IMG/VR virus record: IMGVR_UViG_2687453424_000001
Source: a virus
Taxonomy: Duplodnaviria > Heunggongvirae > Uroviricota > Caudoviricetes
DNA length: 64,000 bases
Direction: 5' to 3' (one strand)
Positions 5,507 to 60,275 of this stretch are shown here, in pieces. The notes under the pieces are model-generated. The model had not been told where the DNA came from, did not search any database, and worked only from the letters and a program-made list of their open reading frames with translations. Position 1 is the stretch's first letter. Each line of letters begins with the position of its first letter. Position numbers and translations under genes: made by a program.

Positions 5507-5621
5507 CCAATCGCTTCCTCCAATTGAAATCAACAACTAAAACAAACAAACAAACAAAAAATAGCCTTCATGAAATAAAACGGTGAATTGTTACGGTTTC
5601 TTTTTTCTAGTTTTCTTTGTA

Positions 5622-11600: not shown

Positions 11601-14600
11601 ATGTCACCATGCCAGTGATCCTTAAAAGTATCCTCAGGCTAAATCAGAAATGCGTGTACTCCATCTTTTAAGAATTGGAATGTTACATTCAGGTCATGCT
11701 CTTCTAACAACTTTGAGTTTTCGTTAGGCAATGATGTGTATTGACCATTTTCTTTTCTTAAAAAAAAAGGATTTATGTCAACCCAGGAATATAAATTATT
11801 TTATTTCCTCAGCTTCCTTGGTTAAGAAAAATGCTTAAATACTTGACAGGCTGGCAGGGTAGTGATTCAAAATTGACTAGAAACTGTGTCATTTAAGTAA
11901 AGCTTTTTAGTTACCTCTTGAGAGTTATGTAATGACTTCAGTTGTATGTCTTGTTGATTTTCTTAGTTGAGTTCTATTTGCAACTTTTAACAGGAATCTG
12001 ATTCAGAAAAGCCATCAAATGAGCATCAGTCAATGAGTTCCATTGGTAAAGACATCTCTGCTGATGTTCATCAGTCAGAAACATCTCAGAGTGTGTCATC
12101 CCTTTCTGTTCCTGAGGCTCAACAGAGCATGTCACTTTATTTTGCTCTGTGTACAAAGGTGTTACCCCTTCTTTTTTATTTTGAGTGCTTGATTCTTGAG
12201 ATTACTATTTTTGAGTGCCTGTTTCTTCATAATCCTCTCAAGGAATTAATATTTTGCTGTTATTATTCAACAGAAGCACTCTCTCTTTCGCCAAATATTT
12301 GTTATCTACAAGAGTGCATCAAAGGCAGTTAAGCAGGTTTGGTTAATGCATTTTGGAATCTTATTTTAGGAATTTATTAAAATCCTTGGTATTATTGCTT
12401 TGTTTTTCTTCTTATTAGTTGGGCAATGCAGGCAATCCATCGTCATATTCCCATACTAGTTCGTACCATGGGCTCGTCATCTGACCTCCTTGAAATTATT
12501 TCAGATCCTCCTAGTGGAAGTGAGAGTCTTCTTATGCAGGTTGTGAAAGTTAAGTAACCTATATAGTTTTCTGAGAACCAATCAGAAGTTCAAAAGTTCT
12601 CTAACTGTTTGCCTTTTCTGTTATCCACCTTCCCTCCCGTCATGCCAGGTTTTGCATACACTGACAGATGGGACAGTTCCTTCTGCAGAATTAATGTTCA
12701 CCATTAAGAAGTTATTTGATTCAAAACTAAAGGTACGAGTAAATTGTCTTTTGTTAAGAACCGGAATGCAGTGAGGATATTGGCTAATGCGCGGTTGATT
12801 CGGATTGGTGACAGGATGTTGAAATTCTAATTCCAGTATTGCCATTCCTACCAAGAGATGAGGTTTTTCTCCATTCTCTGATAATTTCCTTTCTCATTGT
12901 CTACGAGCATGGTTGTTTTGCAGAAGAATGTTGAGTTGTTCAACTGTCTCGTGTAAATGGATTATATCTGTGAGGAATGCGACTCTTGTCTGGACAAGAC
13001 AACATATTGCAATATAAGTTTCAAGTCCATGCTAAAAGGAGATCCTTGGTCCATTCATTTCTTATTTTGTGGGTAAATTAGTTATATTTTGAGTTAGAAA
13101 TGAAAAATAAAAAATGAAAAGTATGTGGATATTCAAGAAAAAAGGGATTTATAATGCTGACAGCACAATTCTTTTTTACTAGAATGTAAGGCTAAGCCAT
13201 ATTAAATACAGATGAAAGTTTGGGCTCAGGGATGCCCTCACTACAAAAGATTTCATGTCAAGACGATACATCACAGCTTATTGCTTTGATATCATAAACG
13301 AGTCTTAACCTTTGCTAGATTCCCTGTCCTTTACCCTCCTTTCATTAATTTAGAATCAACACAAAAATGCGATATTAGAGTTTAAAACATATGTTATTTA
13401 TGAGAAAGTGCATGGTAGTATAATATTGTCAGTATGGCAACTAGAAGTTGTTAATGGCATTAGCAGCAGTGGTTCCATTGTGTCTCTTCCATATATTTGA
13501 TTAAAAAATTTGGATAATATTGTTGTATATGTTGACTTTTGGTGAAGACAATTGTTTAAGGAAGAAAGCAAATTCTTGTTCATGCTCTTTCTTCATGCTT
13601 TTGAGAATTTCATTCTCAACAAATTTATTCTGTTCACTTTCTGCTTGATTATGCCTAGTTTAAATTTTTAATAAATAGCTTCCCCAACTTTCTCTTGTTT
13701 AAGAGGTGCTCTTTGAATGCATTGTATTGGTTTTCATTGGTGTTACCTTAACTTTCTCTGCTGCATTTGTTTTAATAGTTTGTGTTTTTAGGTTTTGCTG
13801 CTCTTTCCACATCTTGTAAATCTTCCGCTGGATAAGTTCCAAGCTGCACTTACCCGGTTGCTACAGGTATCTTTTTTGCCCCATGGCCTCTTACCCAAAA
13901 GTTAAATTCCTCTATTATAGCATTGTTTCTTCTAGCTGTCATTTCTAGGAATCTTAATGTATGGTTGCTTGCATTCTACAGCTGCATCTCTTTTTCATTT
14001 TGTAGCTTTCTAAATTCACTTATAAGGAAATATTTCACTAGGAATATTTTCAGTAGCATATGTAATAATATCATGCTGTATTGGCATTGTCCGTGTTATA
14101 TTTTGATCAGGAAAACACAACCTGCTCGTTTTTCAGCTGCATGTTCTGTTTCATTGCTAATTGGACTCTTTGTACCTAGGGATCTTCTCATTCTGCTCCA
14201 GCGCTCTCTCCAGCCGAAGTGTTAATCGCTATCCATGGTATTGATCCTGAAAGAGATGGAATTCCCTTAAAGAAGGTGTGTTTCCTCCTCAATCTAGACT
14301 CCCCACCCCCGCCTCCCCCTCTCCCCCTTTTTTTAAACTTCTTAATGTTTAGAAATTCACATCTCAGTAACATTTTTAAGCTGCAATCAGGTCACAGATG
14401 CATGTAATGCTTGTTTTGAGCAACGGCAGATATTCACCCAGCAAGTTCTTGCGAAGGTCTTAAATCAATTGGTATGTATTATACCACTTCTTTATGTTTT
14501 TATCACCAAAATTTACTAGTCTCTGGCTGAATTCACAGTTGATGATTGTTGTTTCCTATAGGTTGAGCAAATTCCTCTTCCTTTGTTGTTTATGCGTACA

Positions 14601-15669
14601 GTATTGCAAGCCATTGGTGCTTTTCCTGCACTGGTAAGGAAACACCATTTATCTTTGCTTACTTGAAGGGTACTATAGATAATTGTAGTTATTTATTGCA
14701 GAATTTAAAAAGCTTTCTAGGTAATTTATATTGTCTGCCAGGTAGCTTAGCAATGGCCAAAATGGTTTCATGTCCAATAATTATAGATTTATAGTTCAAT
14801 TTTTTTTTATTTAAAAAAAGGATACTCCACTGTCTTCTCTCTCATTTCATCTGAGGAAGAGGGTAAAACCTGTTTAAAGAATTTAACATGATTAGAAAAA
14901 ATATCCATGAGTCATTGATGACCGGATCACTCAAAATGTTGTAGGTGGACTTTATAATGGAGATCCTTTCTCGTCTTGTAAGCAAGCAGGTGACTACTTT
15001 TATCACAACAAGCTGAACCTTCTTTTCTTTAGGTTTCATGTTTATATGTCATTAAATTAATTGCTTATTGCAGATATGGAAGTATCCAAAGTTGTGGGTA
15101 GGATTTTTGAAATGTGCATTATTGACAAAGCCTCAATCTTTCAGCGTGTTGCTTCAGGTGCATGTTTCTTTTATTAACTATTTTAAAATGCATTTTTGAT
15201 CTCCGAATGTGAAGTTTGCATTTTAGAAGCAAAGCCTGTTCTTTCTGTTTGTAATTGTATGATTCTTGTCTTTCAGCTACCTCCACCGCAGCTGGAAAAT
15301 GCACTGAATAGAACTGCAGCACTCAAAGCTCCTTTGGTTGCTCATGCTAGCCAACAGAATATCCGAACTTCACTTCCAAGGTTCATATGAAGAATGATTT
15401 TTTTTCTCTGATTGGATATAAAAGTCTTCAATATCTACACTCTATGAATAGCTCCTTGTCTATTTCTGATCACCATCTCCCACTCCTCTTTCTTTATACT
15501 TTCGGCATTTGCCATTTCCAGGTCTATACTGGCAGTTTTGGGACTTTCTCTGGACTCTCAGAACTCTAGTCAGGCACAAACAAGTCAGGCTCACACCGGA
15601 GATACTAGTAACTCAGACAAGGATGCAGTGGCAGTGGAGAAATCTAAAGAATCATCTAGTGCTAGCTGA
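5622..15669 (+). CDS. Symplekin-like scaffold protein of the mRNA 3'-end processing machinery (gene span, 27 coding exons, about 1330 aa)
   Basis: Exons (phase-consistent throughout): 5622-5836, 5938-6097, 6407-6499, 6574-6679, 6792-6960, 7349-7523, 7945-8073, 8198-8767, 9130-9741, 9875-9943, 10325-10441, 10521-10766, 10857-10904, 10991-11128, 11994-12158, 12274-12336, 12432-12539, 12649-12732, 12815-12862, 13792-13866, 14180-14275, 14391-14471, 14562-14633, 14945-14989, 15074-15157, 15277-15380, 15522-15669 (stop TGA 15667-15669). C-terminal exons match the conserved symplekin block as I recall it from human symplekin ([12 protein letters not shown]; [10 protein letters not shown]; [20 protein letters not shown]; [47 protein letters not shown]). 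Acceptor choice at exon 8 (8198 vs 8207), exon 9 (9124 vs 9130) and the donor after exon 9 are uncertain. Confidence 0.9.
11462..11510 (+). other. G-rich tract with five or more G3-5 runs (potential G-quadruplex) inside a symplekin intron
   Basis: Reads ggagggctgggggtgttgggtgtggggaagggaaaggaaggaagagg in an otherwise AT-rich intron; coordinates approximate. Confidence 0.5.
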
Positions 15670-16090
15670 GGATCCAAAAACTCAATTTTGGAAAAGCATA
15701 ATCTGACATTGCTCTATAGCTGCCTGCCATGCATTGGATTCACAAGCTCCCAAGTCTGGACTTCCATGCAATAATGTATGCAAGAGGAATGGGAGTGTGG
15801 AAGGCGTAGAAGGCAGACAGTATTCTGTATCATAGCCTTTGATATCTGACACATTCTTATAAATGCCATTGGTAGAGAAGTGCTGGCTGCCTATGCTTAA
15901 AGTATTGATTCGGCAAGAATTTCAGAGATTTTTAGTGAACATGTACAACAGGTTTGATTGCAATTTTGATCAGTTGAAGTAATGCACATAAGGATTTGTA
16001 ACATTGCAAGGAGCTACATCTCAATGTATATACTTTGGTTCACTCCAATTTTTTTAGCATTTCTCATATCATCCTTTGGTGAATTAGCAT

Positions 16091-16110
16091 TCTCTCTCTC
16101 TCTCTCTCTC
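16091..16110. repeat. (TC)n dinucleotide microsatellite
   Basis: About 10 uninterrupted TC units between the symplekin 3' end and the DnaJ promoter; coordinates approximate. Confidence 0.85.
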
Positions 16111-17363
16111 TTAACGCTTATTAATTTAAAGTTGTACTTGTAATTACATTAACCATGACTGACCTCAAGCTGGTTTACAGCCTCTGATTAAGTGGAAAGT
16201 AATGCAGGCATATGCCTACCCCTTGCCTTTCACTCTGGTCGCGAAAGCTTACTCCATCTTTTCCTGGTGAGCGGATCAGTGACGCAATTTGTAGCCATCA
16301 GTGCAAAACCCAATCTGGTATGCTAACACCAGCCAACATTCTACTTCTCCAGGATCGAAAGGGGAGTGGAATCCGCTCTCAGCGGAACCCAGATGATAAT
16401 TATTGTCAAGTAAGAAACTCTCTATTGGTATTGCATCTATAGTTTAACTGATTGTTAATTAAAAAACAGGGTCTTGCATAACATTTCAGAATCCAATGAC
16501 AGCATGTATTCGTAGAATCTTACACAGGAATCAGATTGGCCTCAATTCTAGGAAAACTACCCCATCAAAACTAGTTTTTTTATCACCAGAAGTAACTAAA
16601 ATTCAACAGCCATGAGTGAGTATGACAGCCTACCTGATTATCATGTGGCTGTCTGGTGTGTCTACTAGATAATGGAAAAACATGGTATTCCCTTTTGGTC
16701 CAAGCAAAGAAACTGTTGTAAGTGTCGAGGGATTGTAATAAAAAAAGAAACCGACAAAGATAGATAGATAGATCCTTCACATGTTCCTAGCATTCCCTGT
16801 CGTTTCACATGGTGTCACTTAACCAAAAACTAGATTTAGCTTTGAACCGTATCCTAACATGTCCAAAGCGAATTCCAACCCACTGTTTGCTATCGAAAGA
16901 CATAACTTTTTAATCTGCAAAGACATGTTTCTGGAAAATTTGTACATTTCAATATTTGGCTTTTGAAAAAATTAAGAAATTTATTTGAAATGAATTTTTT
17001 TGGTATTAAAAAGTATTGAATAGTCATATCATAAAAAGAAAATTTTAAATTTTAATGTAAAATATATCAAAATAAAATTTGTTTGTCTTAATTTTTTGGG
17101 CCAACAACCTCGAAAATTAGTTTGGGCTAGAGAGAATAGAAATAAGCTTCTGACAAATTTGATAATGGGCCTAAGCCTAACCTTCTTTGCCTCTTAAGTT
17201 ACCACCTTACTCTCCCCCATCAATGGCTTTCCATATAATAAACTCAGGCGATTTATCTTGGTGGAGGAAAGAGTTGAAGTAGTGACAGAAAGAAAAGGAA
17301 AGAAAATTCAAAGAGAGAAAAGAAAAATCTTCCAGCAGCGGAAAGAGGAAAGGAATTGGAAGA

Positions 17364-19953
17364 ATGGGCGTTGATTATTACAAGATTCTTCAGGTCGACC
17401 GGAATGCAAAAGATGAAGATTTGAAGAAAGCTTATCGGAAACTGGCCATGAAGTGGCATCCCGATAAAAACCCTAAGAACAAGAAAGATGCCGAAGCCAA
17501 ATTTAAGCAAATCTCCGAGGCTTACGATGTAAATTTTATTTTATTTGATTTTTTTGGTTATTTATTTATTTTTTTAATGGAATTTTCAATTAATTGTAGG
17601 TTTTGAGTGATCCCCAAAAGCGTGCGGTTTATGATCAATACGGAGAAGAAGGATTAAAGGGCCACATGCCACCCCCGGGGGCGGGCGGGTTTCCCGGAGG
17701 GGCGGACGGGGGTCCGACGATGTTCCGGTTCAATACTCGGAGCCCCGATGATATTTTCTCGGAAATTTTCGGGTTTTCGAGTCCGTTTGGGGGGATGGGT
17801 GATATGGGCGGGTCACGTGCTGGGGCGTCGGGTTTCCCCAGGGGCATGTTTGGGGAAGATATTTTCGCCTCGTTGAGGGGCGGAGCTGGAGAGGGTTCTA
17901 CGACTATGCCCCGAAAAGGACCCGCTATTGAACGAACATTGCCTTGCAGCTTGGAGGATTTGTATAAAGGGACTACCAAGAAGATGAAGATTTCTAGAGA
18001 TGTTTCTGATGGTATCGGGTAATCTTTTATTTCTATTTTTTTCTTTTTAAAGTTAATTTAGTTGGGTAATGCTTAGTTTTGCTATTTTGATTTTACTAGT
18101 ATGTGGATAAGTGATTTTCAGCTGGATTTATCTGTAGATCTAAGTTCAATTTATTAGCTTTGAGCATAACTTATAATTTAATGTAGAACATCAATAATTG
18201 AATCCTGAAAGGTTTTTTAGGCATAAGACAAGGAATAATTAACATTTTCAAGCAGCGGATATCTTAGCTTGAGTCGCAAAAGATGTTTACAGAGGTTGCC
18301 GAGTTTGACTTTTTGCGAAAAATGGTACTTGTTAGGATAATATGATTCTATTATTTAAAATGATTGGTTGTTTCCCCAAGTGATGACAAAGTTGCATGAC
18401 AGTTAGATTTGATCCAAAAAGTTGTGATTGTTGAGATCTTATGAGCATTATTTTACATTGTTATTCAATTGAGTCTTTTCTGATCTGCGGTCTTAATGTT
18501 CGAGACAGATTTAGATTGGTCAGCATATTTCAGCAAACAAGCAACGCTATTAGAATAATAAACCAGAAATAAACCGGTCGTGTAAGTGTATATTTTGGAG
18601 AATCATAGCTAGGGGCATTTAACTCTGTTAGGCAAACATAATTTAAATTTTATTAGATTTTCTTATCTGGAAAGGAATCTTATGGGGATTTCTTTGCATG
18701 AAGGTATACTCTTTCTCTGTGTTTGATCCTTCTTCCTTATATAGCAAAAAGACTTTCTTTTTCATTCCTCTTTCTCTTTTTGTTTTTCGGTTTTGGTTCA
18801 CTGTCTTTTTAACTTATGGTCAGTTTTTTAATTTCCTGAGTAATAGAGATACTTCTATGGTATTATATAATCTGTTTTGATTATATGATTATTTCCTATT
18901 ATCCTCAACAAAGCTTCTTTCACAATTTGTTCTTTTTCCATAAAGATTAGATTGATCATGGAGATTATTTGTCCATCTATGTGTTTGTGACCAACTTTGG
19001 GAATTTCTTGATGCTTACTCAAGATTCATTTTTTAAGTTCTCTTTTTTTGTATTTTGCTTTATGCCAAATTTGTAAATTTGGCTTCAGCTGATGATAATT
19101 GCTGCATGTTGAAAATAATAGTGGCTTTGTGACGGTATGTCCCTGTCATCAGTTAGCCTTGCTGTTTTGCTTCAGTTTAACCAGATTATCCACAAGCTGG
19201 TAGTTTTTAGATCAGCACACTAGTTGGAATTTCCTAGAACACAACTTTATATCAGCTTAATTTACCATGTGAATTCAACTTGTCGAGTCCGAAATTTGCA
19301 TTCTACTGAATGCTTATATGCTTAAAACTGTGAGTGCTTACAATTTTGCACTTTGTATATTTATTAAGACTTACGTAGTTAAATTATGGCGAGAGAAGTT
19401 CCTAGTTCTAGCAATAATATGTAGTTTTGGGAAATCTTAAAACCGTGATCTTTTACAGTTAACTTTTTTATTCCTTTATTTTCAAGAAAATACTTTTTTA
19501 TCCCTTTACAGGAGACCTACTACAGTGGAGGAAATTCTTACTATTGAGATTAAGCCAGGGTGGAAAAAAGGTACAAAAATCACTTTTCCAGAGAAGGGAA
19601 ACGAGCAACGAGGGGTTATTCCTTCTGACCTTGTCTTCATCATTGACGAGAAGCCTCACGGTGTGTTCAAGAGGGATGGCAATGATCTTGTTGTTACTCA
19701 GAAGATATCTCTAGTGGAAGCTCTTACTGGTTATACAGCACAGCTGACAACGCTTGATGGACGGAATCTGACGGTCCCTATTAACAACGTCATTAGTCCA
19801 ACCTATGAAGAGGTTGTTAAAGGTGAGGGAATGCCCATTCCCAAGGAACCTTCTAAGAAAGGAAATTTGAGAATTAAATTCAGCATCAAGTTCCCTACCA
19901 AGCTTACGACAGAGCAGAAAACTGGCCTGAAGCGGTTAATGTCATCTCCCTAG
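17364..19953 (+). CDS. DnaJ/Hsp40 co-chaperone, class B (type II, DNAJB1-like), 3 exons, about 342 aa
   Basis: Exons 17364-17528, 17600-18018, 19512-19953, all anchored to ORF-track frames. J domain with [17 protein letters not shown] (HPD motif), GC-rich Gly/Phe-rich linker ([12 protein letters not shown]...FGGMGDMGG), no Cys-rich zinc-finger region, conserved C-terminal substrate-binding domain ([24 protein letters not shown]...). Confidence 0.93.
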
Positions 19954-21407: not shown

Positions 21408-23583
21408 ATGGAAATGGCTTCCGCTGCTCGAACCGTCGAGGAGATCTTCAAAGATTACTCTGCTAGAAGAACGGCCATCGTTCGTGCTTTAACATACGGT
21501 GAAATTTTATTTCCATTCTTTTTTCTCCTCTTTTTGGTTTTTTTCTGTTTCGATTTTTACGTCTTTGTAGCTGTTTAACGGTGCCGTTTTCTTTGTCTTT
21601 CTCTCAGATGTGGATGAATTTTATGGACTCTGCGATCCAGGTATTCTCTGATTGGAGATCCGAAAACCTCTTCTTTCTTTTTTTTTTTAAATTTTATTTT
21701 CAATTTTATTTCTATTTTTGCATGTAAATCCGAATTTCATAGTTTTATTTTATTTCATTTTTACATGCAATCAGATTTCGGTTCTTAATTGAATTTAGAA
21801 ATTATCGTTCCTCGTTTAATAATGAAGTTACTGAATTCCAGAATTGCAATTCCTTAGGAAATTCAAGTTGTCTGCTTTTATGCAGAAGAAGCTTTCCCTC
21901 TTAGTTTGGCAGAGATCAAACAGAGGTTTATATATAAAAAAAGGTTTTGTTCTTTGCTTTTTGTTTGGTCTCAGAAAAAGAGAATTTATGCCTGTATGGA
22001 CATCCGAATGAAAGCTGGGAAGTGACTCTGCCAGCAGAGGAAGTTCCACCAGAGCTTCCTGAGCCGGCACTTGGCATTAACTTTGCAAGAGATGGAATGA
22101 ATCGAAAAGATTGGTTGTCCTTGGTCGCGGTGCATAGTGATTCGTGGTTGATTTCTGTGGCTTTCTATCTCGGTGCGCGTCTTAACCGCAATGAAAGGTA
22201 CTGTCTTTTTCCTTCTGTTTTTGCTTCATGTGTAGAAGGATCATGTTGAAGCAGTTTTAAGTTCATTGAAAATCGGGTTGATTCATCAAGTTTCGTTTAG
22301 TTTCTTTTGTAAATTTTGGTATCAACTTTGATTATTATCAGGGAATGCTTCCCTTTGTTTTTCCCGGCGCAATATATTTGTTGGTCTAGTGGTGGTTCAG
22401 ACTTGAACTGTTTTTCTTCAGTTGGATGTTAGAAATGACTATGCAAGATTACCAATGCAAATACAGAAGTAGTGAATGCATCAGGCTTTTTCTTGTGGTG
22501 CTTGGCAGAGTAAAAACTTGATATATGCATATGCATAGGTCTCATGATATTGTGTTCGTATTTTGCTCGTTTATGGAATACATTTATAATTGTTTATTAT
22601 CATGTTTCATTCCAGGAAACGCCTATATAGCATGATGAATGATCTGCCCACTGTCTTTGAGGTTGTAACTGAAAGGAAGCCAGTTAAAGACAAACCAAGC
22701 ATGGATAGTGGGAGCAAATCCCGGGGCAGCACAAAGGTTAGACAGATCAAATCTATTGTGATTTTTATTATTATTTGAGCTTGGACAATTTAATCATAAA
22801 CTTTTACGCTTAGATTCTCTTCTATCACTGAGAAAGGGAGAAGGGGGGTGGTATGACTGAGGGAAACCTTTTTTTTTTTTGGAAAGTTAAGCATTTCATT
22901 ACTGAAACAGGGAATAAAAAGTTCTGTGGAACATTACAAAGGCAGCACCTAATTTTGGATTTTGTTATGGACATAACATAACAACCAGAAATCAAGGCCT
23001 CAGATACAGAAAAGCAGAACAGCAGCATCATCAACCCACAGACTCATCCTAATTTTTGTTCACAAAATCTATACACAAAAACGTATCAATATCATCATCA
23101 AACCCTGTACAACTATTGAAATATACTTGCTATCATAATGCTCAAGCCACCCCATCCATTAATCATGTAAAGTGCCCAGTTGTATCGTAATGAATGCACA
23201 GTTTGATATGATTAAGCCTGCAGAGCAGGCCTAATATTTCCTACACGAAAGAATGAATTTCTTGTACTTAACCTGTTCAGGTATTTTTTTTTTTTTTGTG
23301 TTAGTCACTGACTTGATTCTTTGCTTTATAGAGATCAATTGAAGGACAAGCCAAAAGCAATCCTAAGGTTGCGGATGAGATTTTTGAGGAAGATGAAGAT
23401 GAACACAGTGAAACACTCTGCGGCAGCTGCGGTGGAAATTACAATGCAGATGAGTTTTGGATTGGCTGTGATGTTTGTGAGAGGTGGTTCCATGGGAAGT
23501 GTGTGAAGATAACACCTGCTAAAGCTGAGAGCATTAAGCAATACAAATGCCCATCTTGCAGCTTGAAGAGGGGCAGGCAGTGA
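21408..23583 (+). CDS. Alfin-like PHD-finger protein, 5 exons, about 240 aa
   Basis: Exons 21408-21498, 21608-21640, 21975-22197, 22616-22736, 23332-23583. N-terminal Alfin/PAL domain ([10 protein letters not shown]...[53 protein letters not shown]...[13 protein letters not shown]) and C-terminal PHD finger ([47 protein letters not shown]). First two exon boundaries come from sequence counting; the rest are ORF-anchored. Confidence 0.92.
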
Positions 23584-24897
23584 CAGTCACTAAAATGACA
23601 AGAAGAGAACAGAGACACTTCAATGGCTGACAAAGTAGTATAGCAATATTCCTGCCTTTGGTAATGTAATGAAATTTTTCATCATGTCTGTTCATAATAG
23701 ATGCTTCGGAACAGATGGAAGTTCTACTTCTCCCAGATACCTTTGTTTAAATGTCAACTCATATGTTAGGATTTGTTTAACGTCTGAAAAATTTGTCAAT
23801 AACATTTGCCCATGTATGCTAGTCTTTGTCTTTTCTTCCTCCCACAAGGTGAAGGGTAAAATTCACTCAATACGGGACATTCTCAAATGATACCAGGTAG
23901 TGAAAAGATTAGATGACGCAAGGATGGATGGAAATCCTCTGCCCCGGTAATGTGACCTGTGTCACGGATTATGTTCTTTCGTCTAAGTATGCGATAGTCT
24001 GTGCGACACATGAGTGGAGGCTTCTACGTAAGTCAGTTAATACTCGGTTATATCTGTTTCAACAATAATAATAACAATAAATCAGACTAAGAAAATTTAC
24101 ATCAAAATTAAAAGGCATATCGAATGTCATATATGCAATCACTTAGTCATAATAAGAAAAAATATTTCGTTAATATGAAATTAATTACAAAGAGATCGAG
24201 ACATGCCATTGTCGGGTCACGAGGGCAGTCTGAGATGGATTGCTCATACTTTTACCAGTGAGGCAACCCAACAATCTGTCGATTGCTCACCTCTTATAAA
24301 GAGTTTACGAGATTTTACAAGTATTCTACCAATAACCATTACAATGTTTGAAATAAACATTCCTTTTTTAAAAGGTCTTTTTCTTTAAAAATTTAACAAG
24401 GATTTGTATCACCACGAGACATTACATTGTTTGAAAAAGGGATATTTTTCTTACATATACAAAAAGCTCAATCTAATAGACAACTCTACCCTGTTATAGT
24501 CTAGTACAAAGTTAGCTCGTGACACCCTGCCTCTTTGCCCCGTGAACAAGGGGATCGAACCAAGGTCATGTTCATGGTAAAATAGTTATTTTTTCTTTCT
24601 GTCTTTGGACCTTGGAGATCCTCGCCAAAAGAGTTTGAACAAGGAACAGAACCCTTTGAATGTGAATCAATTTGGACACTAGGAAACCTCAGCCAAATTC
24701 CGACAATTAGAAGACACAATAAGGACAGCTTAAGGCATCCATTAATCCTATCAATCAATTCTTAGTGCTTATCGCCACCTTAAAAATGTTTTCCTTCGTT
24801 TTCATCTGTTTTTGTCTCTCCGTCCCCCACCTCTCTATATTTCCCCTCCTACGACGGGGCGAATGCTTGTGCTACAATCGAGCCATTTCTCTCCACA

Positions 24898-26150
24898 ATG
24901 CGTCGTCCCAGTCGATCTGATGGCTTGGCCAAAGAACGCCTGAGATGGACTCAAGAGCTGCATGATCGATTTGAAGATGCTGTTAATCAGCTTGGAGGTC
25001 CAGATAGTAAGTTTCTGATAGCTCGGAAACAATTTTTCCATTCATGCTTGTTCTTTGGTTTAATGTTTGTGTAAATTTTGGTTTGCCAGGGGCGACGCCA
25101 AAGGGTATCCTGAAGGCTATGGGGGTTGATGGACTGACCATTTACCATGTCAAAAGCCACCTGCAGGTTAGCTCCGTCCCCAACACTTACATATATGTAT
25201 CTTCTTTCCTGTAAATCAAAATGCCTATGGATTCATGTTTTAGTTTTATTTTTGCAGAAATACAGGATCTTAAAGTTTGTTCCAGAAACAAATACAAGTA
25301 AGTTGAAAGAAGTGAACCTTCAGTCTGATCACTCACATTGAAGTTAAGAAAAGAAAGAACTGATTGAAAAGACGGTGACCCTTTGATTCTAACTCTCTAA
25401 CTTTGATAACCATGTTCTTTTAACTGCAGAATGCAAGTTTGAGAGGAGAGATATATCAGAAATACTGCCTAATTTCGGTACAACATCGTGAGTTATCGTT
25501 TCTTTTCTGTTTTGATAGGGAATTATTGTATAGTACGAGTTTATTTTCTTATTGTGTCATTGTTGTGATTGAAAAAATCATTGAAGAGGGGCTCAGCTTA
25601 ATGAAGCCTTGCAAATGCATAAGGAAGCAGAAAGAAAGCAAGGGGATCATCAGCTCGAGGTAAACATACGGAAAATTAGATTCTCTTCGTTTTAGTTTTT
25701 CCACAAAGAAGAAAGGTATAGCCCTTCAGGGATGTAGCTAGTTTTAACAATTTCTAGAGGGGTTTATGTTTGAAGGCTCAAAGGAACTTGAAGATTAAGA
25801 TTGAAGCTCAGGTAATATTCCTTGAGAGACTTGCAGGCCAACATGGAAACCGAGCTACCCCAACAAAAGCTACCAAGCCATTCTCTCCCACATCACTGCC
25901 TTCACTCTGTGAGGAGTCTGAGTCGACTGCAAAAGATGGTTTCGAAACCGACCCCGAGGCTGACAGAAATGAGATAGAATCAGGAGAAAGAGTTCAAGCA
26001 ATGTATGCATTCGAATCATGGGACCAATATGATCATCAAGACATGGTTCTTAACAGGGAAGAAAGGGTTTCTTACCTTGCTAATGATATCAGCTTTCCCT
26101 GGAATGTCCCAGTTTGCTCATCATCCCCCCTGGTGCCTAGTTTTTTGTGA
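24898..26150 (+). CDS. MYB-CC / GARP-type transcription factor (PHR1-like SHLQKYR class), 6 exons, about 243 aa
   Basis: Exons 24898-25006, 25090-25166, 25258-25297, 25430-25487, 25587-25659, 25776-26150. Myb/SANT-like HTH signature split over exons 1-3 (RLRWTQELHDRFEDAVNQLGGPD | RATPKGILKAMGVDGLTIYHVKSHLQ | KYR), then a coiled-coil segment (EALQMHKEAERKQGDHQLE | AQRNLKIKIEAQ). The last exon is read as one long in-frame ORF; the C-terminal half has no recognisable domain. Confidence 0.78.
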
Positions 26151-28304
26151 CTTTTGCCACAACTTCCATGTACAATTGATTTTGTAAAACAAAGCAATAA
26201 AACCATATCATGGACACAAAATTGATTGCTTTCAGGGTTGTCAAATTAAACACTTGGAAGGAGCATCTAACTTAATCTTGTAAATCATGAAAGCAATCAA
26301 GAACTTCCTATCACAAGTATTCATATCTAAATAAATTTGTACCATCCTAGCAATGCTGCTTGTGTAATAAAAAGAGGGTGATCTGATATATTGTTACTGG
26401 CTTTTCATGTAAGCTTGTAAAGCATCAATTCTATTGCAATTTTCTATAAAAAAAACAAAGAAAAATTGTATTGCTAAGAACAAAATAAATTTATTAGATA
26501 TATGACGTAAAATTACAAATTCATTGAATGAGTCTGTTTCAATTTTAAGATTTGTCCTGGGATTCTTTTTGTCCTCCTTGAGCTTGAAACTTCCTTGGTT
26601 TTATTCTCTTCATCGGGTCAAGCAGACACAAACAAACAACAAACATGAGCACAGCCACCAGCCATGCCAATGGCCATCGTGGCATATTGTCCATTGGGCT
26701 TAAATGATAGGTGACCACTGACTTGGGTAAAACTGCAAGCGTGGAATGGGCTGATTTTGGTCCATAGCTGGTGTCGTGACAACACAGTCAAAAGTTTGAG
26801 GCTAAGCAAGCAATGTGTAACACATGCCTGCCGACGGGTAGTTACATTGTATCGGCCTTCTGTTCATAGCCAAACCAAACCACATTAATTCAACATTGTA
26901 GTGCTGTAAGTTAAAAGCAAATTAAGACAAGAAGCTGCCAGTTAGGCATGGTCTTAGATATTATCGGGATAACGGGAGATCAGTGAATGAACCCTAACAT
27001 TTTCCAAATAATGGAAGAGATATATAAGCACGTGCCCTTTTCCATAAACATACTAAAGGAAGCAGTGAATGAATTTGTCTAACAGGGTACTAGCATAGAC
27101 AAGTAAGTCTACAACACTAGGTATAAATTAAAGTATTCTGACTGATCCTCCTCACAACATAGCTAAAGTTTGCCTTTTATGAAATTAATATACCGTCGTG
27201 CTATATATATATATATAGTACCTTATTATAATAAACTTTACTGCAGTACCCATTCCGCAGTGATCAGTGAATGCTTTGACAAATCGATTTATTAATAGCT
27301 ATTTATGTGTATCTCTGCCTACCACAACCACATAAAGAAAAATAAAGAGACAACTTGGGGGAAAGTTTGAAAGCTTTTAAAAAACGTGCCATGGTGGTAC
27401 TTGGAAATGGGGTGTTAAATGTGGAACGAGTCAAAAAGGCCAAAACATAAAGGACTTGTAACGTAATGGACATGACATTAATACAAAGAGGAAAATTTGA
27501 GTAAGGCAAAAGGACTACTGTAAAGGGCAAAAGCGAGAGAGAAGGAACAGCAACGTATATAGTACTTTTCTGTTTATGCTTTGCCCATCCTAGCAAGATC
27601 GAAAGTGGAGACGACCTGGGTGACCTTTTAGATATATGCGGTGTGTTTGCTGACTCATGGAAAATGTTTCAAAGCATAAGAGCCACAATTATTTTTGTAC
27701 CCTCTGCTATAGCACTGGTCAAAGCTGAGACCATCGAAAGAGTTAGGTTTTAATTCGTACGGATTCGAAATTGATTTACGTATGTTTACGTCTAAATTCG
27801 TTATTTTTTAGTATAAATATATTATATATACATATTTATCATGAAATCAAATATCGGTATATATCTCTTGATTGTATTGAATTTTATCCACGTGGAGCTG
27901 TCGTTAACGTTTTAAAATATCCAAGGCAACTAATCTGGATGGTATTTAATTTGTTTAAAAATTGACATCCCCAATTTCGAAGAAAGAGCGATGTTGTCGC
28001 CTGTTGTACTGCCCCAATGGTGGTTCACATTGTCATTATTATATGCTAATGGACATCTTGGGTTGGTTGTTTTCGATATACTACTTTAAGCAAAAGCTGT
28101 ATATAGCCCATGTGATGGAAATTCATATAAAGAAAATTAATAGGTGTGAGGGAAAACATGGAACTCATTGCAGCTTCATTTTCCAACTAAATTCAAACCA
28201 AACCAAACCACAATTATTCAGTCCAAATTATCAAGTGGGGGCAGCATTTTTCTTGGTATCTTCTCGTGGCAATTCATTGTCTGCCTAACTTGAAAAATCT
28301 GAAA

Positions 28305-28327
28305 AAGAAAGAAAGAAAGAAAGAAAG
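28305..28327. repeat. (GAAA)n microsatellite
   Basis: About 5-6 GAAA units; coordinates approximate. Confidence 0.8.
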
Positions 28328-29216
28328 ACGTTTAGCTGTCTTTATTCAATCCAAATCTTAAACCCAGGAAGAAGCAGCTAGCTTACTAGCTTTATGCATG
28401 TGCAAGAGACTGCATGCTTCTTGAGTGTACTCGTATACTAAAGGAATAGAGAGAAAGAATTGTAGGGTGAGAAGTTGGTGAAATGTTCTAATCATATACG
28501 TAATTATCAATTTGTTTCTTAGATTAGTCCAGGCAACTACTCCAATTTTACATGCCAAGGCGATTTTTCTTTAAAAAAGACAATGGGATATTTATCTATA
28601 TTATGATTCTAGAAAGGAAAGAATTTATTACAAGAACTATAAATTAAGGAATAGATCTCATATAAACAAAGATATTATAAAAATGTAAAGAAATTCTTTC
28701 TGTTCATCTGCGATTGAGATTGTCTCTTTAAAAATGTATTTGAGAGATAAGTCAAAAATTCTGTTATTGTAACTTTTAATATGATTAGGGATTTTGCAAA
28801 CATTTTTAATATAAAGAAATAAGAGGTGACAATTATCTCACTAGGTTGGTCATTTGATAGATTCTATTAATTTATAACACAAGTGAGCAAAGGCAGCCAT
28901 CACAGATTGGTTTTCTGCTACCAAAATTGACACAGACAACAAGTTTTATCCACATCCACTTTATCACTTAGGCTCCTTTTGACTCAGGCAACAATTTTGA
29001 ATAAAAGGGCATCAAGAATTTATAATATGATATGACACAAATTAATATTGCTTCTTGAAATGCTTGCATACAGTAATCTTTTCACATGATCATGTAAAGC
29101 TTCAAATTAGCTGATTATAGTACTTTCAGAAGCTCTATATTTAGGTTGGAGAGGCTTGGGAGTATTATTTAAATGTAAGCGATTGGTACACATCACACAA
29201 GTACTATGTATGGAGA

Positions 29217-31128
29217 CTATCTATTGGATTTCAAGGATTCAACTTGCGCTTTGCCACATGGACCCTTGGTCCTGATGTAAAGTCTGTACTCATCAAACGT
29301 CATGGGATTATACAGAGCCGGCCGGTCCTTACTCACTAGCTCCTTGGCTGGTTCGATGAGTAAATCACTCTTTGGGTTGTAGAAGAAAGCTAGGGAGACT
29401 CGATCTTTTGCTGAATTCACGATTACCCTGTGTTCAACACTCTTGTAAATTCCATTGCTCAGCACCTGAACGTGTTTCATGAAACCTATGATCAGCTTTC
29501 TTTTGCTCTTGAAACATGGGGCAATAATAATACAGAAGAAATTGGAGTGACAATCCTAGAGAGAAAGATCAGAAACCTGAAGCTGGTCTCCAACGTTGAC
29601 AATGAAAGCATTAGGAACAGGCTTCACGGTGATCCACTTGCCATTCTTACAAACTTGGAGTCCAGCTACGTCGTGATCAGGCAGGAGAATGGTCATGGCA
29701 CCAGGGTCTGAGTGTGAGGAAAGACCTAGGGTAAGGTCAGGCTGAGGACACTTTGGATAGAAGTTGACCCTTAAACAGGCACCGATGTCTTCTCCACCGA
29801 AGGCTTTCTGCAGGTAATCTTCTGGCAGTCCAAGATTTGTTGACATCGCCTTCAGCAGCCTTCCACACAGTTTTACAACTTCAGCACCATATTCTGCTAC
29901 CAGTTCCCTGCATCCAGATGTGAACAGCTAATGATTAGTAAATTCTGCTACCAGTTCCCTGCATGTTTAAGGTTAAAGCTCTCTCCATTCGTACATGTTA
30001 CATAAAACAGTAGAAAACAAATACCCTTTTCATTTTCAACAAAGTTGGGTCTACTATTTTGGTCGGGGATTAATATTTTAACCTGAATTTCTTTCTTTTT
30101 CCTTCCTTTTTCTGTTGTGAATTGTAAGCAAACTTGAAAACGACCAACACTCCTTTGCATGTGAAGTTGCAACTAATTAACTTTTGGTAAGGTTAGGAAA
30201 GATTCGAGGGTCAAAACCATCTCCATTGGATCGATGCAGGCCGTGCGATTTGGATATGGATTTGCTTTTTAATCATTCCATTTTGACTTCATGAAATCGT
30301 TTCCCTACCCTTAGAATTTTTGTCTTCTTTAATTATTGCCTTCAAAAGAGGAGATCAAAGTTGATCAATTAACCTCAGTCAATATGGGGGTGTTTATATC
30401 GTGAGACATCAGTTGCAACCCGGGCCAAATCTAAGATTATTGGTCAGTTGACCGAATCCCACTGTCCTAGTTTTTGTTCTCTTGGCAGATGTAAGAAAAG
30501 AGAAAGAATCTCTTTTCGTGCAGAGAGACAGGAACAAAAAGAAAACATCAACGTAAATAAAACATCATGGTATCACGTTTTGTAAAAAGATAAAATAAAC
30601 AATGAGGCAGGCAGGGGGTGCAGACCTGCAAGATGACGGTTGTGCAGGCCACTTGCTTTGATTCCTCGACGAAACCGGCATGAAGTGAAGAAAAAAGTAA
30701 TCGCTCCAATCCAGAATCGCTCCTTTCTCTACTCCCAAGCGACTGCCGTACCCTTCATAGGTACTTGGCTCGTTGGCATACCCTTGCTTCACTTCAAGCG
30801 GCAGGCTGAAGAATCGACGCCACACCTCTCGGATGCGCCTCATCAGCTCGTGGCTAACCCCATGGTTCACCGCCTGGAAGAAACCCCAGTCCCGGCACGT
30901 GCTGGAGATGCATCTCAAGGTCTCCTCCCGCAGGGCTAGGTCTTTCCCGAACAGGTTCTGGAGATCAACGACAGGAATGTCAACATGTTCTTCGATTTTG
31001 GAACATGTTTTCAGGCCAGGCCTGTCGGTTAGCGGCTTGATGTATCGCTCTGGAATGGCACGTATCCCACTGTCAGACAGAGACTGAACTCGAACCACCG
31101 GCTCAGGCCAACTCTGGAGACAATTCAT
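29217..31128 (-). CDS. 2-oxoglutarate/Fe(II)-dependent dioxygenase (DOXC class; jasmonate-induced-oxygenase / At5g05600-like), 3 exons, about 360 aa
   Basis: Exons on the minus strand 30626-31128, 29577-29907, 29217-29465, all ORF-anchored. N-terminus MNCLQSWPEPVVRVQSLSDSGIRAIPERYIKP; DIOX_N region (WGFFQAVNHGV); 2OG-FeII_Oxy fold with the HxD...H iron triad and RxS (SSHSDPGAMTILLPDHDVAGLQV...YKSVEHRVIVNSAKDRVSLAFFYNP). Confidence 0.92.
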
Positions 31129-33539: not shown

Positions 33540-36500
33540 NNNNNNNNNNNNNNNNNNNNNNNNNNNNNNNNNNNNNNNNNNNNNNNNNNNNNNNNNNNNN
33601 NNNNNNNNNNNNNNNNNNNNNNNNNNNNNNNNNNNNNNNNNNNNNNNNNNNNNNNNNNNNNNNNNNNNNNNNNNNNNNNNNNNNNNNNNNNNNNNNNNNN
33701 NNNNNNNNNNNNNNNNNNNNNNNNNNNNNNNNNNNNNNNNNNNNNNNNNNNNNNNNNNNNNNNNNNNNNNNNNNNNNNNNNNNNNNNNNNNNNNNNNNNN
33801 NNNNNNNNNNNNNNNNNNNNNNNNNNNNNNNNNNNNNNNNNNNNNNNNNNNNNNNNNNNNNNNNNNNNNNNNNNNNNNNNNNNNNNNNNNNNNNNNNNNN
33901 NNNNNNNNNNNNNNNNNNNNNNNNNNNNNNNNNNNNNNNNNNNNNNNNNNNNNNNNNNNNNNNNNNNNNNNNNNNNNNNNNNNNNNNNNNNNNNNNNNNN
34001 NNNNNNNNNNNNNNNNNNNNNNNNNNNNNNNNNNNNNNNNNNNNNNNNNNNNNNNNNNNNNNNNNNNNNNNNNNNNNNNNNNNNNNNNNNNNNNNNNNNN
34101 NNNNNNNNNNNNNNNNNNNNNNNNNNNNNNNNNNNNNNNNNNNNNNNNNNNNNNNNNNNNNNNNNNNNNNNNNNNNNNNNNNNNNNNNNNNNNNNNNNNN
34201 NNNNNNNNNNNNNNNNNNNNNNNNNNNNNNNNNNNNNNNNNNNNNNNNNNNNNNNNNNNNNNNNNNNNNNNNNNNNNNNNNNNNNNNNNNNNNNNNNNNN
34301 NNNNNNNNNNNNNNNNNNNNNNNNNNNNNNNNNNNNNNNNNNNNNNNNNNNNNNNNNNNNNNNNNNNNNNNNNNNNNNNNNNNNNNNNNNNNNNNNNNNN
34401 NNNNNNNNNNNNNNNNNNNNNNNNNNNNNNNNNNNNNNNNNNNNNNNNNNNNNNNNNNNNNNNNNNNNNNNNNNNNNNNNNNNNNNNNNNNNNNNNNNNN
34501 NNNNNNNNNNNNNNNNNNNNNNNNNNNNNNNNNNNNNNNNNNNNNNNNNNNNNNNNNNNNNNNNNNNNNNNNNNNNNNNNNNNNNNNNNNNNNNNNNNNN
34601 NNNNNNNNNNNNNNNNNNNNNNNNNNNNNNNNNNNNNNNNNNNNNNNNNNNNNNNNNNNNNNNNNNNNNNNNNNNNNNNNNNNNNNNNNNNNNNNNNNNN
34701 NNNNNNNNNNNNNNNNNNNNNNNNNNNNNNNNNNNNNNNNNNNNNNNNNNNNNNNNNNNNNNNNNNNNNNNNNNNNNNNNNNNNNNNNNNNNNNNNNNNN
34801 NNNNNNNNNNNNNNNNNNNNNNNNNNNNNNNNNNNNNNNNNNNNNNNNNNNNNNNNNNNNNNNNNNNNNNNNNNNNNNNNNNNNNNNNNNNNNNNNNNNN
34901 NNNNNNNNNNNNNNNNNNNNNNNNNNNNNNNNNNNNNNNNNNNNNNNNNNNNNNNNNNNNNNNNNNNNNNNNNNNNNNNNNNNNNNNNNNNNNNNNNNNN
35001 NNNNNNNNNNNNNNNNNNNNNNNNNNNNNNNNNNNNNNNNNNNNNNNNNNNNNNNNNNNNNNNNNNNNNNNNNNNNNNNNNNNNNNNNNNNNNNNNNNNN
35101 NNNNNNNNNNNNNNNNNNNNNNNNNNNNNNNNNNNNNNNNNNNNNNNNNNNNNNNNNNNNNNNNNNNNNNNNNNNNNNNNNNNNNNNNNNNNNNNNNNNN
35201 NNNNNNNNNNNNNNNNNNNNNNNNNNNNNNNNNNNNNNNNNNNNNNNNNNNNNNNNNNNNNNNNNNNNNNNNNNNNNNNNNNNNNNNNNNNNNNNNNNNN
35301 NNNNNNNNNNNNNNNNNNNNNNNNNNNNNNNNNNNNNNNNNNNNNNNNNNNNNNNNNNNNNNNNNNNNNNNNNNNNNNNNNNNNNNNNNNNNNNNNNNNN
35401 NNNNNNNNNNNNNNNNNNNNNNNNNNNNNNNNNNNNNNNNNNNNNNNNNNNNNNNNNNNNNNNNNNNNNNNNNNNNNNNNNNNNNNNNNNNNNNNNNNNN
35501 NNNNNNNNNNNNNNNNNNNNNNNNNNNNNNNNNNNNNNNNNNNNNNNNNNNNNNNNNNNNNNNNNNNNNNNNNNNNNNNNNNNNNNNNNNNNNNNNNNNN
35601 NNNNNNNNNNNNNNNNNNNNNNNNNNNNNNNNNNNNNNNNNNNNNNNNNNNNNNNNNNNNNNNNNNNNNNNNNNNNNNNNNNNNNNNNNNNNNNNNNNNN
35701 NNNNNNNNNNNNNNNNNNNNNNNNNNNNNNNNNNNNNNNNNNNNNNNNNNNNNNNNNNNNNNNNNNNNNNNNNNNNNNNNNNNNNNNNNNNNNNNNNNNN
35801 NNNNNNNNNNNNNNNNNNNNNNNNNNNNNNNNNNNNNNNNNNNNNNNNNNNNNNNNNNNNNNNNNNNNNNNNNNNNNNNNNNNNNNNNNNNNNNNNNNNN
35901 NNNNNNNNNNNNNNNNNNNNNNNNNNNNNNNNNNNNNNNNNNNNNNNNNNNNNNNNNNNNNNNNNNNNNNNNNNNNNNNNNNNNNNNNNNNNNNNNNNNN
36001 NNNNNNNNNNNNNNNNNNNNNNNNNNNNNNNNNNNNNNNNNNNNNNNNNNNNNNNNNNNNNNNNNNNNNNNNNNNNNNNNNNNNNNNNNNNNNNNNNNNN
36101 NNNNNNNNNNNNNNNNNNNNNNNNNNNNNNNNNNNNNNNNNNNNNNNNNNNNNNNNNNNNNNNNNNNNNNNNNNNNNNNNNNNNNNNNNNNNNNNNNNNN
36201 NNNNNNNNNNNNNNNNNNNNNNNNNNNNNNNNNNNNNNNNNNNNNNNNNNNNNNNNNNNNNNNNNNNNNNNNNNNNNNNNNNNNNNNNNNNNNNNNNNNN
36301 NNNNNNNNNNNNNNNNNNNNNNNNNNNNNNNNNNNNNNNNNNNNNNNNNNNNNNNNNNNNNNNNNNNNNNNNNNNNNNNNNNNNNNNNNNNNNNNNNNNN
36401 NNNNNNNNNNNNNNNNNNNNNNNNNNNNNNNNNNNNNNNNNNNNNNNNNNNNNNNNNNNNNNNNNNNNNNNNNNNNNNNNNNNNNNNNNNNNNNNNNNNN

Positions 36501-37908
36501 NNNNNNNNNNNNNNNNNNNNNNNNNNNNNNNNNNNNNNNNNNNNNNNNNNNNNNNNNNNNNNNNNNNNNNNNNNNNNNNNNNNNNNNNNNNNNNNNNNNN
36601 NNNNNNNNNNNNNNNNNNNNNNNNNNNNNNNNNNNNNNNNNNNNNNNNNNNNNNNNNNNNNNNNNNNNNNNNNNNNNNNNNNNNNNNNNNNNNNNNNNNN
36701 NNNNNNNNNNNNNNNNNNNNNNNNNNNNNNNNNNNNNNNNNNNNNNNNNNNNNNNNNNNNNNNNNNNNNNNNNNNNNNNNNNNNNNNNNNNNNNNNNNNN
36801 NNNNNNNNNNNNNNNNNNNNNNNNNNNNNNNNNNNNNNNNNNNNNNNNNNNNNNNNNNNNNNNNNNNNNNNNNNNNNNNNNNNNNNNNNNNNNNNNNNNN
36901 NNNNNNNNNNNNNNNNNNNNNNNNNNNNNNNNNNNNNNNNNNNNNNNNNNNNNNNNNNNNNNNNNNNNNNNNNNNNNNNNNNNNNNNNNNNNNNNNNNNN
37001 NNNNNNNNNNNNNNNNNNNNNNNNNNNNNNNNNNNNNNNNNNNNNNNNNNNNNNNNNNNNNNNNNNNNNNNNNNNNNNNNNNNNNNNNNNNNNNNNNNNN
37101 NNNNNNNNNNNNNNNNNNNNNNNNNNNNNNNNNNNNNNNNNNNNNNNNNNNNNNNNNNNNNNNNNNNNNNNNNNNNNNNNNNNNNNNNNNNNNNNNNNNN
37201 NNNNNNNNNNNNNNNNNNNNNNNNNNNNNNNNNNNNNNNNNNNNNNNNNNNNNNNNNNNNNNNNNNNNNNNNNNNNNNNNNNNNNNNNNNNNNNNNNNNN
37301 NNNNNNNNNNNNNNNNNNNNNNNNNNNNNNNNNNNNNNNNNNNNNNNNNNNNNNNNNNNNNNNNNNNNNNNNNNNNNNNNNNNNNNNNNNNNNNNNNNNN
37401 NNNNNNNNNNNNNNNNNNNNNNNNNNNNNNNNNNNNNNNNNNNNNNNNNNNNNNNNNNNNNNNNNNNNNNNNNNNNNNNNNNNNNNNNNNNNNNNNNNNN
37501 NNNNNNNNNNNNNNNNNNNNNNNNNNNNNNNNNNNNNNNNNNNNNNNNNNNNNNNNNNNNNNNNNNNNNNNNNNNNNNNNNNNNNNNNNNNNNNNNNNNN
37601 NNNNNNNNNNNNNNNNNNNNNNNNNNNNNNNNNNNNNNNNNNNNNNNNNNNNNNNNNNNNNNNNNNNNNNNNNNNNNNNNNNNNNNNNNNNNNNNNNNNN
37701 NNNNNNNNNNNNNNNNNNNNNNNNNNNNNNNNNNNNNNNNNNNNNNNNNNNNNNNNNNNNNNNNNNNNNNNNNNNNNNNNNNNNNNNNNNNNNNNNNNNN
37801 NNNNNNNNNNNNNNNNNNNNNNNNNNNNNNNNNNNNNNNNNNNNNNNNNNNNNNNNNNNNNNNNNNNNNNNNNNNNNNNNNNNNNNNNNNNNNNNNNNNN
37901 NNNNNNNN
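33540..37908. other. N-run, 4369 bp
   Basis: Continuous n; boundaries confirmed from ORF-track X positions. Confidence 0.99.

Positions 37909-55627: not shown

Positions 55628-60275
<4,648 letters not shown>

Follow-up and report, generated by a model that had tools for sequence, protein, structure and literature searches.

Gene content of the locus

The 64,000-nucleotide stretch analysed here (hereafter the window; IMG/VR record IMGVR_UViG_2687453424_000001) carries an Alfin-like (AL) gene, a MYB-CC gene and a gene for a 2-oxoglutarate (2OG)/Fe(II) dioxygenase of the JOX/JAO (jasmonic acid oxidase) type, and the identity of this dioxygenase and its linkage to the Alfin-like gene are the subject of the present analysis. 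The window is Theobroma cacao DNA: the dioxygenase product matches a deposited T. cacao protein (P0001) at 100% identity, and 14.3 kb of the window aligns at 99.87% to T. cacao chromosome 5 (record CM001883.1), at 0.79 Mb. Approximately one third of the window is N-masked.

The Alfin-like gene occupies positions 21408..23583 on the plus strand and consists of five exons (21408-21498, 21608-21640, 21975-22197, 22616-22736 and 23332-23583) encoding 239 residues, with an N-terminal Alfin domain and a C-terminal PHD finger. The MYB-CC (PHR1-like) gene follows on the same strand at 24898..26150, with six exons (24898-25006, 25090-25166, 25258-25297, 25430-25487, 25587-25659 and 25776-26150) and 243 residues. 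The dioxygenase gene is located on the minus strand at 29217..31128 and encodes 360 residues in three exons (31128-30626, 29907-29577 and 29465-29217). All introns in the three genes are of the GT-AG type. The Alfin-like stop codon ends at 23583 and that of the dioxygenase at 29217, leaving the two genes tail-to-tail across a gap of 5.6 kb. A preliminary description of the sequence had placed the three genes in just this way, 5.6 kb apart with the MYB-CC gene in between, and gene models, Pfam domains and public annotation all agree with it; the annotation of CM001883.1 lists the identical three products (360, 243 and 239 residues) in the same order and orientation.

Identity of the dioxygenase

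The dioxygenase contains the Pfam domains DIOX_N and 2OG-FeII_Oxy (102.7 and 126.9 bits, respectively). In a search against solved structures the best match was AtJOX2 (At5g05600, PDB 6LSV) with 504 bits and E = 2e-150, followed by anthocyanidin synthase (ANS) with 266 bits, while T6ODM, F6'H1, ACO, H6H, the gibberellin (GA) oxidases and DAO scored lower than ANS. The iron ligands of the HxD...H triad (H233, D235 and H290) and the 2OG ligands of the RxS site (R300 and S302) are all kept. The residues of AtJOX2 that contact jasmonate have been described as an arginine triad (R225/R350/R354), a hydrophobic triad (F157/F317/F346) and the residues Y135, L142, L241, P247 and I353 (PMC13385383). It is clear from the alignment that 11 out of 11 of these contacts are identical in the cacao protein, where they correspond to R214, R339 and R343, to F146, F306 and F335, and to Y124, L131, L230, P236 and I342.

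The preliminary description had assigned the dioxygenase to the jasmonic acid oxidase clade, and this was examined by phylogeny. Homologues were taken from two JOX searches (the best 120 hits of each). The outgroup consisted of ANS and 98 unnamed sequences, each representing another cluster of plant 2OG dioxygenases at the 50% level, that were drawn from a scan of 1.84 billion cluster representatives and had identities of at most 49%; the scan also gave one grass sequence at 55%. DMR6, S3H/DLO1, F3H, FLS, AtJOX3 and AtJOX4 were not in the trees. A neighbour-joining tree of 334 taxa with 200 bootstraps contained a 234-member clade, supported at 99%, that holds the window protein, AtJOX1, AtJOX2 and all hits of both JOX searches, with ANS and the 98 representatives falling outside. 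In a smaller tree of 48 taxa with 500 bootstraps the eudicot JOX proteins grouped at 98%, and at 99% when the grass sequence was added. The assignment to the jasmonic acid oxidase clade was thus upheld, since the dioxygenase groups with AtJOX1 and AtJOX2 at 98-99% bootstrap. The grass homologue, which is from Paspalum and has 55% identity, branches as sister to the eudicot clade at 99%. In the published arrangement of the DOXC46 family the monocot JAOs are sister to the dicot JAOs, and OsJAO1-3 oxidise jasmonic acid.

Within the eudicot JOX proteins the 48-taxon tree separates two subgroups. Subgroup A (76%) comprises the cacao window protein together with proteins from rosids, asterids and Vitis. 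Subgroup B (70%) comprises AtJOX1 and AtJOX2, a second Malvaceae lineage (Durio, Gossypium and Corchorus olitorius) with 68-72% identity to both Arabidopsis proteins, further rosids and asterids, and also Tetracentron and Ranunculus. The database names JOX1, JOX2, JOX4 and JRG21 were considered as a guide to the subgroups and dropped, as the names are mixed within each of them.

Duplicated 2OG dioxygenases frequently diverge in substrate, and the enzymes of subgroup A could in principle have been neofunctionalised to accept, for example, a flavonoid or a different oxylipin in place of jasmonic acid. The global identity of the cacao protein to AtJOX1 and AtJOX2 is only 61%, and about 51% in the N-terminal exon, which would fit such a shift, as would the inconsistent public names of its close homologues (ANS, LDOX, FLS and SRG1). 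We consider this explanation unlikely. The jasmonate contacts, the arginine triad included, are identical to those of AtJOX2, whereas the poplar protein that has been described without the full triad is the one doubted in the literature, and the score against ANS is about half of that against JOX2. Furthermore, AtJOX1-4 all oxidise jasmonic acid (Caarls et al.; PMC13385383), with micromolar Km values reported for AtJOX2-4, and since the monocot-sister enzymes OsJAO1-3 are active as well, subgroup A is bracketed by proven jasmonic acid oxidases. The names ANS and leucoanthocyanidin dioxygenase (LDOX) on close homologues are legacy mislabels.

Based on these residues, the cacao dioxygenase would bind Fe(II) through H233, D235 and H290 and 2-oxoglutarate through R300 and S302, as in AtJOX1-4 and OsJAO1-3. 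R214, R339 and R343 would hold jasmonic acid by its carboxylate and keto groups, while F146, F306, F335, Y124, L131, L230, P236 and I342 would form the hydrophobic part of the pocket, and the pentenyl side chain would then be hydroxylated. Such a reaction would divert jasmonic acid from the active hormone jasmonoyl-isoleucine (JA-Ile) and dampen jasmonate signalling, and the most likely role of the cacao dioxygenase is to hydroxylate jasmonic acid and so to leave less of it for the synthesis of JA-Ile. The product of JOX enzymes was earlier given as 12-hydroxyjasmonic acid (12-OH-JA), whereas two reports from 2025-26 find 11-OH-JA (PMC13385383; bioRxiv 10.1101/2025.10.09.681447), and any product annotation passed on to the cacao gene should reflect this revision.

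Intron 1 of the dioxygenase gene contains the 21-nucleotide sequence GCAGGGAACTGGTAGCAGAAT twice, 51 bp apart, at 29891-29911 and 29942-29962 on the minus strand, and the repeat spans the acceptor of exon 2. The upstream copy provides a second AG acceptor, from which the reading runs into stop codons (…GAATTTACTAATCATTAG); it is a candidate for a decoy or possibly an alternative 3' splice site.

Gene order in Arabidopsis and other plants

The preliminary description had placed AL1 next to At5g05600 and AL2 close to At3g11180 in Arabidopsis, which proved to be right when the chromosome records were inspected. Chromosome 5 (CP002688.1), at 1.67 Mb, carries in sequence FAD8 (+), PAI (-), an open reading frame of 60 residues, JOX2 (+), AL1 (-, 2.7 kb downstream) and gamma-tubulin; chromosome 3 (BA000014.8), at 3.4 Mb, carries FAD7 (+), JOX1 (+), AL2 (-, 1.7 kb downstream) and a GDSL lipase. 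Both Arabidopsis pairs are oriented tail-to-tail, as is the cacao pair. JOX1 is At3g11180 and JOX2 is At5g05600 (Caarls et al.), and a study of Alfin-like genes from 2013 tabulates AT5G05600/AT3G11180, FAD8/FAD7 and AT5G05550/AT3G11100 as paralogue pairs flanking AtAL1 and AtAL2. A paper from 2005 on synteny between legumes and Arabidopsis reports blocks ending in At5g05600, At3g11180 and At3g55970 (JOX3) among four Arabidopsis segments that are syntenic with one legume region; it is silent on Alfin-like genes.

The adjacency is found well outside Arabidopsis. Next to a subgroup-B JOX gene of Hibiscus syriacus (locus L009) a gene with Alfin and PHD domains lies 5 kb downstream and tail-to-tail, and the subgroup-B JOX gene of Tetracentron has a truncated Alfin-like copy, PHD half only, 2 kb downstream in the same arrangement. 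Jatropha has both pairs, one of subgroup A (tags JCGZ_25005/25007) and one of subgroup B (JCGZ_01256/01257). Locus tags that are consecutive or nearly so indicate the same proximity in subgroup A of Populus tomentosa (025243/025244), Vitis rotundifolia (009765/009768) and Escallonia (003623/003627), and in subgroup B of Lonicera (034838/034839); for Vitis the adjacency is read from locus tags only. Because the adjacency recurs at both Arabidopsis loci, in Hibiscus and in Tetracentron, in addition to the tagged loci elsewhere, we do not regard it as a chance arrangement.

A wider conserved block surrounds the subgroup-A pair. The Jatropha locus has MYB-CC, JOX and a calcium-dependent protein kinase (CDPK) gene, with tags running from 25004 to 25007, and in the window a CDPK gene is found at 55798..60164 on the minus strand (a partial model, whose open reading frames contain the Pfam domains Pkinase and EF-hand). 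This gene is conserved as a neighbour 5' of the subgroup-A dioxygenase gene and has a tblastx match to the CDPK gene adjoining the Jatropha subgroup-A JOX gene. The order CDPK, JOX, MYB-CC, Alfin-like is thus common to cacao and Jatropha, the JOX gene being inverted relative to its flanks in Jatropha. Homologues of the genes flanking the Arabidopsis pairs (FAD7/8, PAI, tubulin and GDSL) are not found in the cacao window, and none of the loci searched from Durio, Hibiscus, Tetracentron and Jatropha contained a FAD7/8 homologue either.

Three JOX-clade proteins of Hibiscus syriacus (P0010, P0053 and P0174), all with DIOX_N and 2OG-FeII_Oxy domains, bear the GenBank names 'calcium-dependent protein kinase 13-like' and 'Alfin-like 1 isoform 1'. 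These misnames were apparently carried over from neighbouring genes and mirror the CDPK/JOX/Alfin-like neighbourhood.

The Alfin-like and MYB-CC genes

The Alfin-like protein matches the Pfam domains Alfin (also DUF3594 or PAL domain) with 230 bits and PHD with 40 bits, and the Cys4-His-Cys3 ligands of its PHD finger (CGSCG...CPSC) are intact. Among solved structures, AtAL2 gives the best match to the N-terminal domain (256 bits) and AtAL1 the best match to the PHD finger (100 bits). When Alfin-like proteins were placed in a tree, those encoded next to subgroup-A JOX genes (6 of 6) fell in one cluster and those next to subgroup-B JOX genes (7 of 7) in another.

These data bear on whether the cacao pair could be the direct orthologue of AL1/JOX2 and AL2/JOX1, the split into A and B being a rate artefact of neighbour joining. 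Adjacency and tail-to-tail orientation are common to the cacao and Arabidopsis pairs, AtAL2 and AtAL1 are the closest to the window protein among solved Alfin-like domains, and the A/B bootstraps are just 70-76% with Alfin-like identities only a few percent apart, all of which is compatible with orthology. We nevertheless find orthology quite improbable. Jatropha carries both pairs and the Malvaceae have a second pair, as seen at the Hibiscus locus above; AtJOX1 and AtJOX2 are closer to the second Malvaceae paralogue than to the window protein; rosids and asterids occur in both subgroups; in 13 of 13 cases the position of an Alfin-like protein in its tree follows the subgroup of the adjoining JOX gene; and the Arabidopsis flanks are unmatched in the window. 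Both cacao genes accordingly sort with the paralogous subgroup A in flanks that are not collinear with either Arabidopsis pair. As judged from the sequence comparisons, the cacao pair is a paralogue, and not an orthologue, of the two Arabidopsis pairs.

The match to AL1/JOX2 and AL2/JOX1 proposed in the preliminary description therefore stands with respect to adjacency and tail-to-tail orientation and fails with respect to descent and flanking genes, the pairs being paralogous. Its use of the linkage as support for the identity of the dioxygenase has to be narrowed in the same way: since the cacao pair belongs to subgroup A and the Arabidopsis pairs to subgroup B, the linkage supports no more than that the dioxygenase belongs somewhere in the JOX clade. 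The direct sequence evidence for the JOX identity is far stronger than the linkage, which becomes largely redundant.

Two of the linked Alfin-like genes may be decaying copies. The gene beside the Hibiscus subgroup-B JOX gene (L009 19846-22224) ends in …KCPSIQKKARH and has lost the last PHD cysteine, and in Tetracentron (L008 14116-14588) the C-terminal PHD half is all that is present.

The MYB-CC protein has a Pfam Myb domain (40.9 bits) with the motif VKSHLQKYR. Its putative coiled-coil carries GDHQLE instead of LHEQLE and scores 26.2 bits with Myb_CC_LHEQLE, which is below the cut-off of 29.1, and its best solved relative is rice PHR2 (107 bits) in a match that spans both the MYB and the coiled-coil regions. 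A MYB-CC gene likewise adjoins the subgroup-A JOX gene in Jatropha. In Sesamum, Myb, Alfin and PHD domains are joined in a single gene model (P0438), and together with the position in Jatropha this suggests that the adjacency of MYB-CC and Alfin-like genes reaches into the asterids.

Rosids and asterids have both kept the pair in two paralogous blocks, and cacao and Jatropha have the four-gene order in common. This could be taken to mean that the Alfin-like, MYB-CC, JOX and CDPK genes are kept together by selection as a co-regulated stress module, e.g. as a chromatin domain read by the Alfin-like protein. If this were true, an H3K4me3-reading Alfin-like protein and stress-signalling genes would form a conserved 'jasmonate attenuation' neighbourhood with a jasmonate-inactivating enzyme. 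We regard such a module as very improbable indeed. The MYB-CC gene is absent from pair B and, to judge from the consecutive locus tags, apparently also from pair A of Populus; the JOX gene of Jatropha is inverted relative to its flanks when compared with cacao; and the degraded Alfin-like copies of Tetracentron and Hibiscus argue against tight constraint. In addition, two-gene neighbourhoods are commonly retained in plants over such a timescale. Inherited gene order is the best explanation for the linkage of the dioxygenase to the Alfin-like gene, and nothing points to a functional coupling.

Origin of the linkage

Taking the results together, we think it highly probable that the dioxygenase is an intact cacao member of the JOX/JAO (DOXC46) family, and that it lies beside the Alfin-like gene through passive inheritance of an ancestral eudicot arrangement that was duplicated as a block. 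An ancestral JOX/Alfin-like pair would have been duplicated before the rosid-asterid split, giving rise to two paralogous pairs: pair A, with CDPK, JOX-A, MYB-CC and AL-A, would be the one in the cacao window and likewise in Jatropha, and pair B, with JOX-B and AL-B, would be represented by JOX2/AL1 and JOX1/AL2 in Arabidopsis, by Hibiscus and by the second Jatropha locus. With respect to timing and mechanism we infer that the block was probably duplicated through a whole-genome event before the rosid-asterid split, for which the core-eudicot hexaploidy is the obvious candidate.

Several observations weigh against this reading. The identity of the cacao protein to AtJOX1 and AtJOX2 is 61%, compared with 68-72% for the other Malvaceae paralogue, so that subgroup A could have a shifted substrate or shifted kinetics. 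The bootstraps of the A/B split are moderate (70-76%), those of the Alfin-like tree are low (1-31%) with protein identities that differ by a few percent only, and the trees that define the subgroups are without AtJOX3 and AtJOX4. Tetracentron and Ranunculus, which are early-diverging eudicots, group with B and not outside A and B, which makes any age for the duplication tentative. Within the 10 kb of flanking sequence searched, there is no Alfin-like gene next to the subgroup-B JOX gene of Durio, the JOX gene of the grass Paspalum, or the homologue from the magnoliid Tasmannia, which is 49% identical and named 'jasmonate-induced oxygenase 2-like'. Finally, a single G-box is present upstream of the dioxygenase gene (at -555, window position 31678) where approximately 0.35 are expected by chance; the G-box/MYC2 count is thus not above chance and gives no evidence for jasmonate induction, and jasmonate inducibility of the cacao gene is something that we can only infer.

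Flanking genes and assembly differences

On the far side of the Alfin-like gene the window contains a multi-exon symplekin gene at 5560-16600 (+), with SYMPK_PTA1_N at 124 bits and Symplekin_C at 63 bits on the concatenated exons, followed by a gene with DnaJ and DnaJ_C domains at 17364-19953 (+). In Arabidopsis, ESP4 (At5g01400) presumably adjoins the DnaJ gene At5g01390, on the chromosome arm shared with AL1/JOX2. Between the MYB-CC and dioxygenase genes, at approximately 26615-27252 on the minus strand, the public cacao annotation has a further gene of 81 residues (L004 13877-14514) that gave no Pfam hit.

Two masked runs, 33540-37908 and 38671-42170, lie 2.4-11 kb upstream of the dioxygenase ATG. 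The counterpart of the first run (4369 bases) in the Matina 1-6 record measures only some 43 bp (L004 7546-7589), and that of the second (3500 bases) about 1.2 kb. Since the runs are longer than their Matina 1-6 counterparts, the window comes from a different cacao assembly or genotype with extra repeat insertions upstream of the dioxygenase gene.

Significance and comparison with known systems

The dioxygenase is an ordinary, already annotated gene of a known family in a conserved neighbourhood of known type, and the practical value of the present assignment is modest. It does replace the current cacao annotation, '2OG and Fe(II)-dependent oxygenase superfamily protein', with a functional label, namely jasmonic acid oxidase of DOXC46 subgroup A, in a family where close homologues carry misleading public names (ANS, LDOX, FLS, SRG1, 'CDPK 13-like' and 'Alfin-like 1'). 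Given that JOX genes act as a brake on jasmonate defence in both Arabidopsis and rice, the cacao gene is a reasonable candidate for the tuning of growth against defence. The presence of two paralogous JOX/Alfin-like pairs in eudicots also calls for caution against equating neighbourhood with orthology when the names JOX1 and JOX2 are transferred.

Among the known systems, ANS/LDOX (PDB 1GP4) is the nearest solved 2OG dioxygenase that is not a JOX protein. It has the fold and the iron/2OG motifs in common with the cacao protein but differs from it in the score (266 bits versus 504 for JOX2) and in its position outside the JOX clade of 98-99% support. Rice OsJAO1-3, for which jasmonic acid oxidation is proven, are likewise DOXC46 enzymes, but they form a monocot sister clade and are not members of the subgroup to which the cacao protein belongs.

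For the Alfin-like gene the comparison is with Arabidopsis AL1 (At5g05610) and AL2 (At3g11200), which likewise combine Alfin and PHD domains, have five exons, are 77-81% identical to the window protein and each adjoin a JOX gene. In the tree, with weak bootstrap support, they cluster with the B-linked Alfin-like genes, whereas the window gene clusters with the A-linked ones.

AtJOX2 and AtJOX1 resemble the cacao dioxygenase in their DIOX_N and 2OG-FeII_Oxy domains, the three coding blocks, the N-terminal motif WPEP(V/I)VRVQSL, the metal and 2OG ligands and the 11 jasmonate contacts, and each of their genes is tail-to-tail with an adjacent Alfin-like gene, as in cacao. They differ in belonging to subgroup B rather than A and in the MYB-CC gene that intervenes in cacao, and the outer flanks are CDPK and DnaJ in cacao compared with FAD7/8 and tubulin or a GDSL lipase in Arabidopsis.

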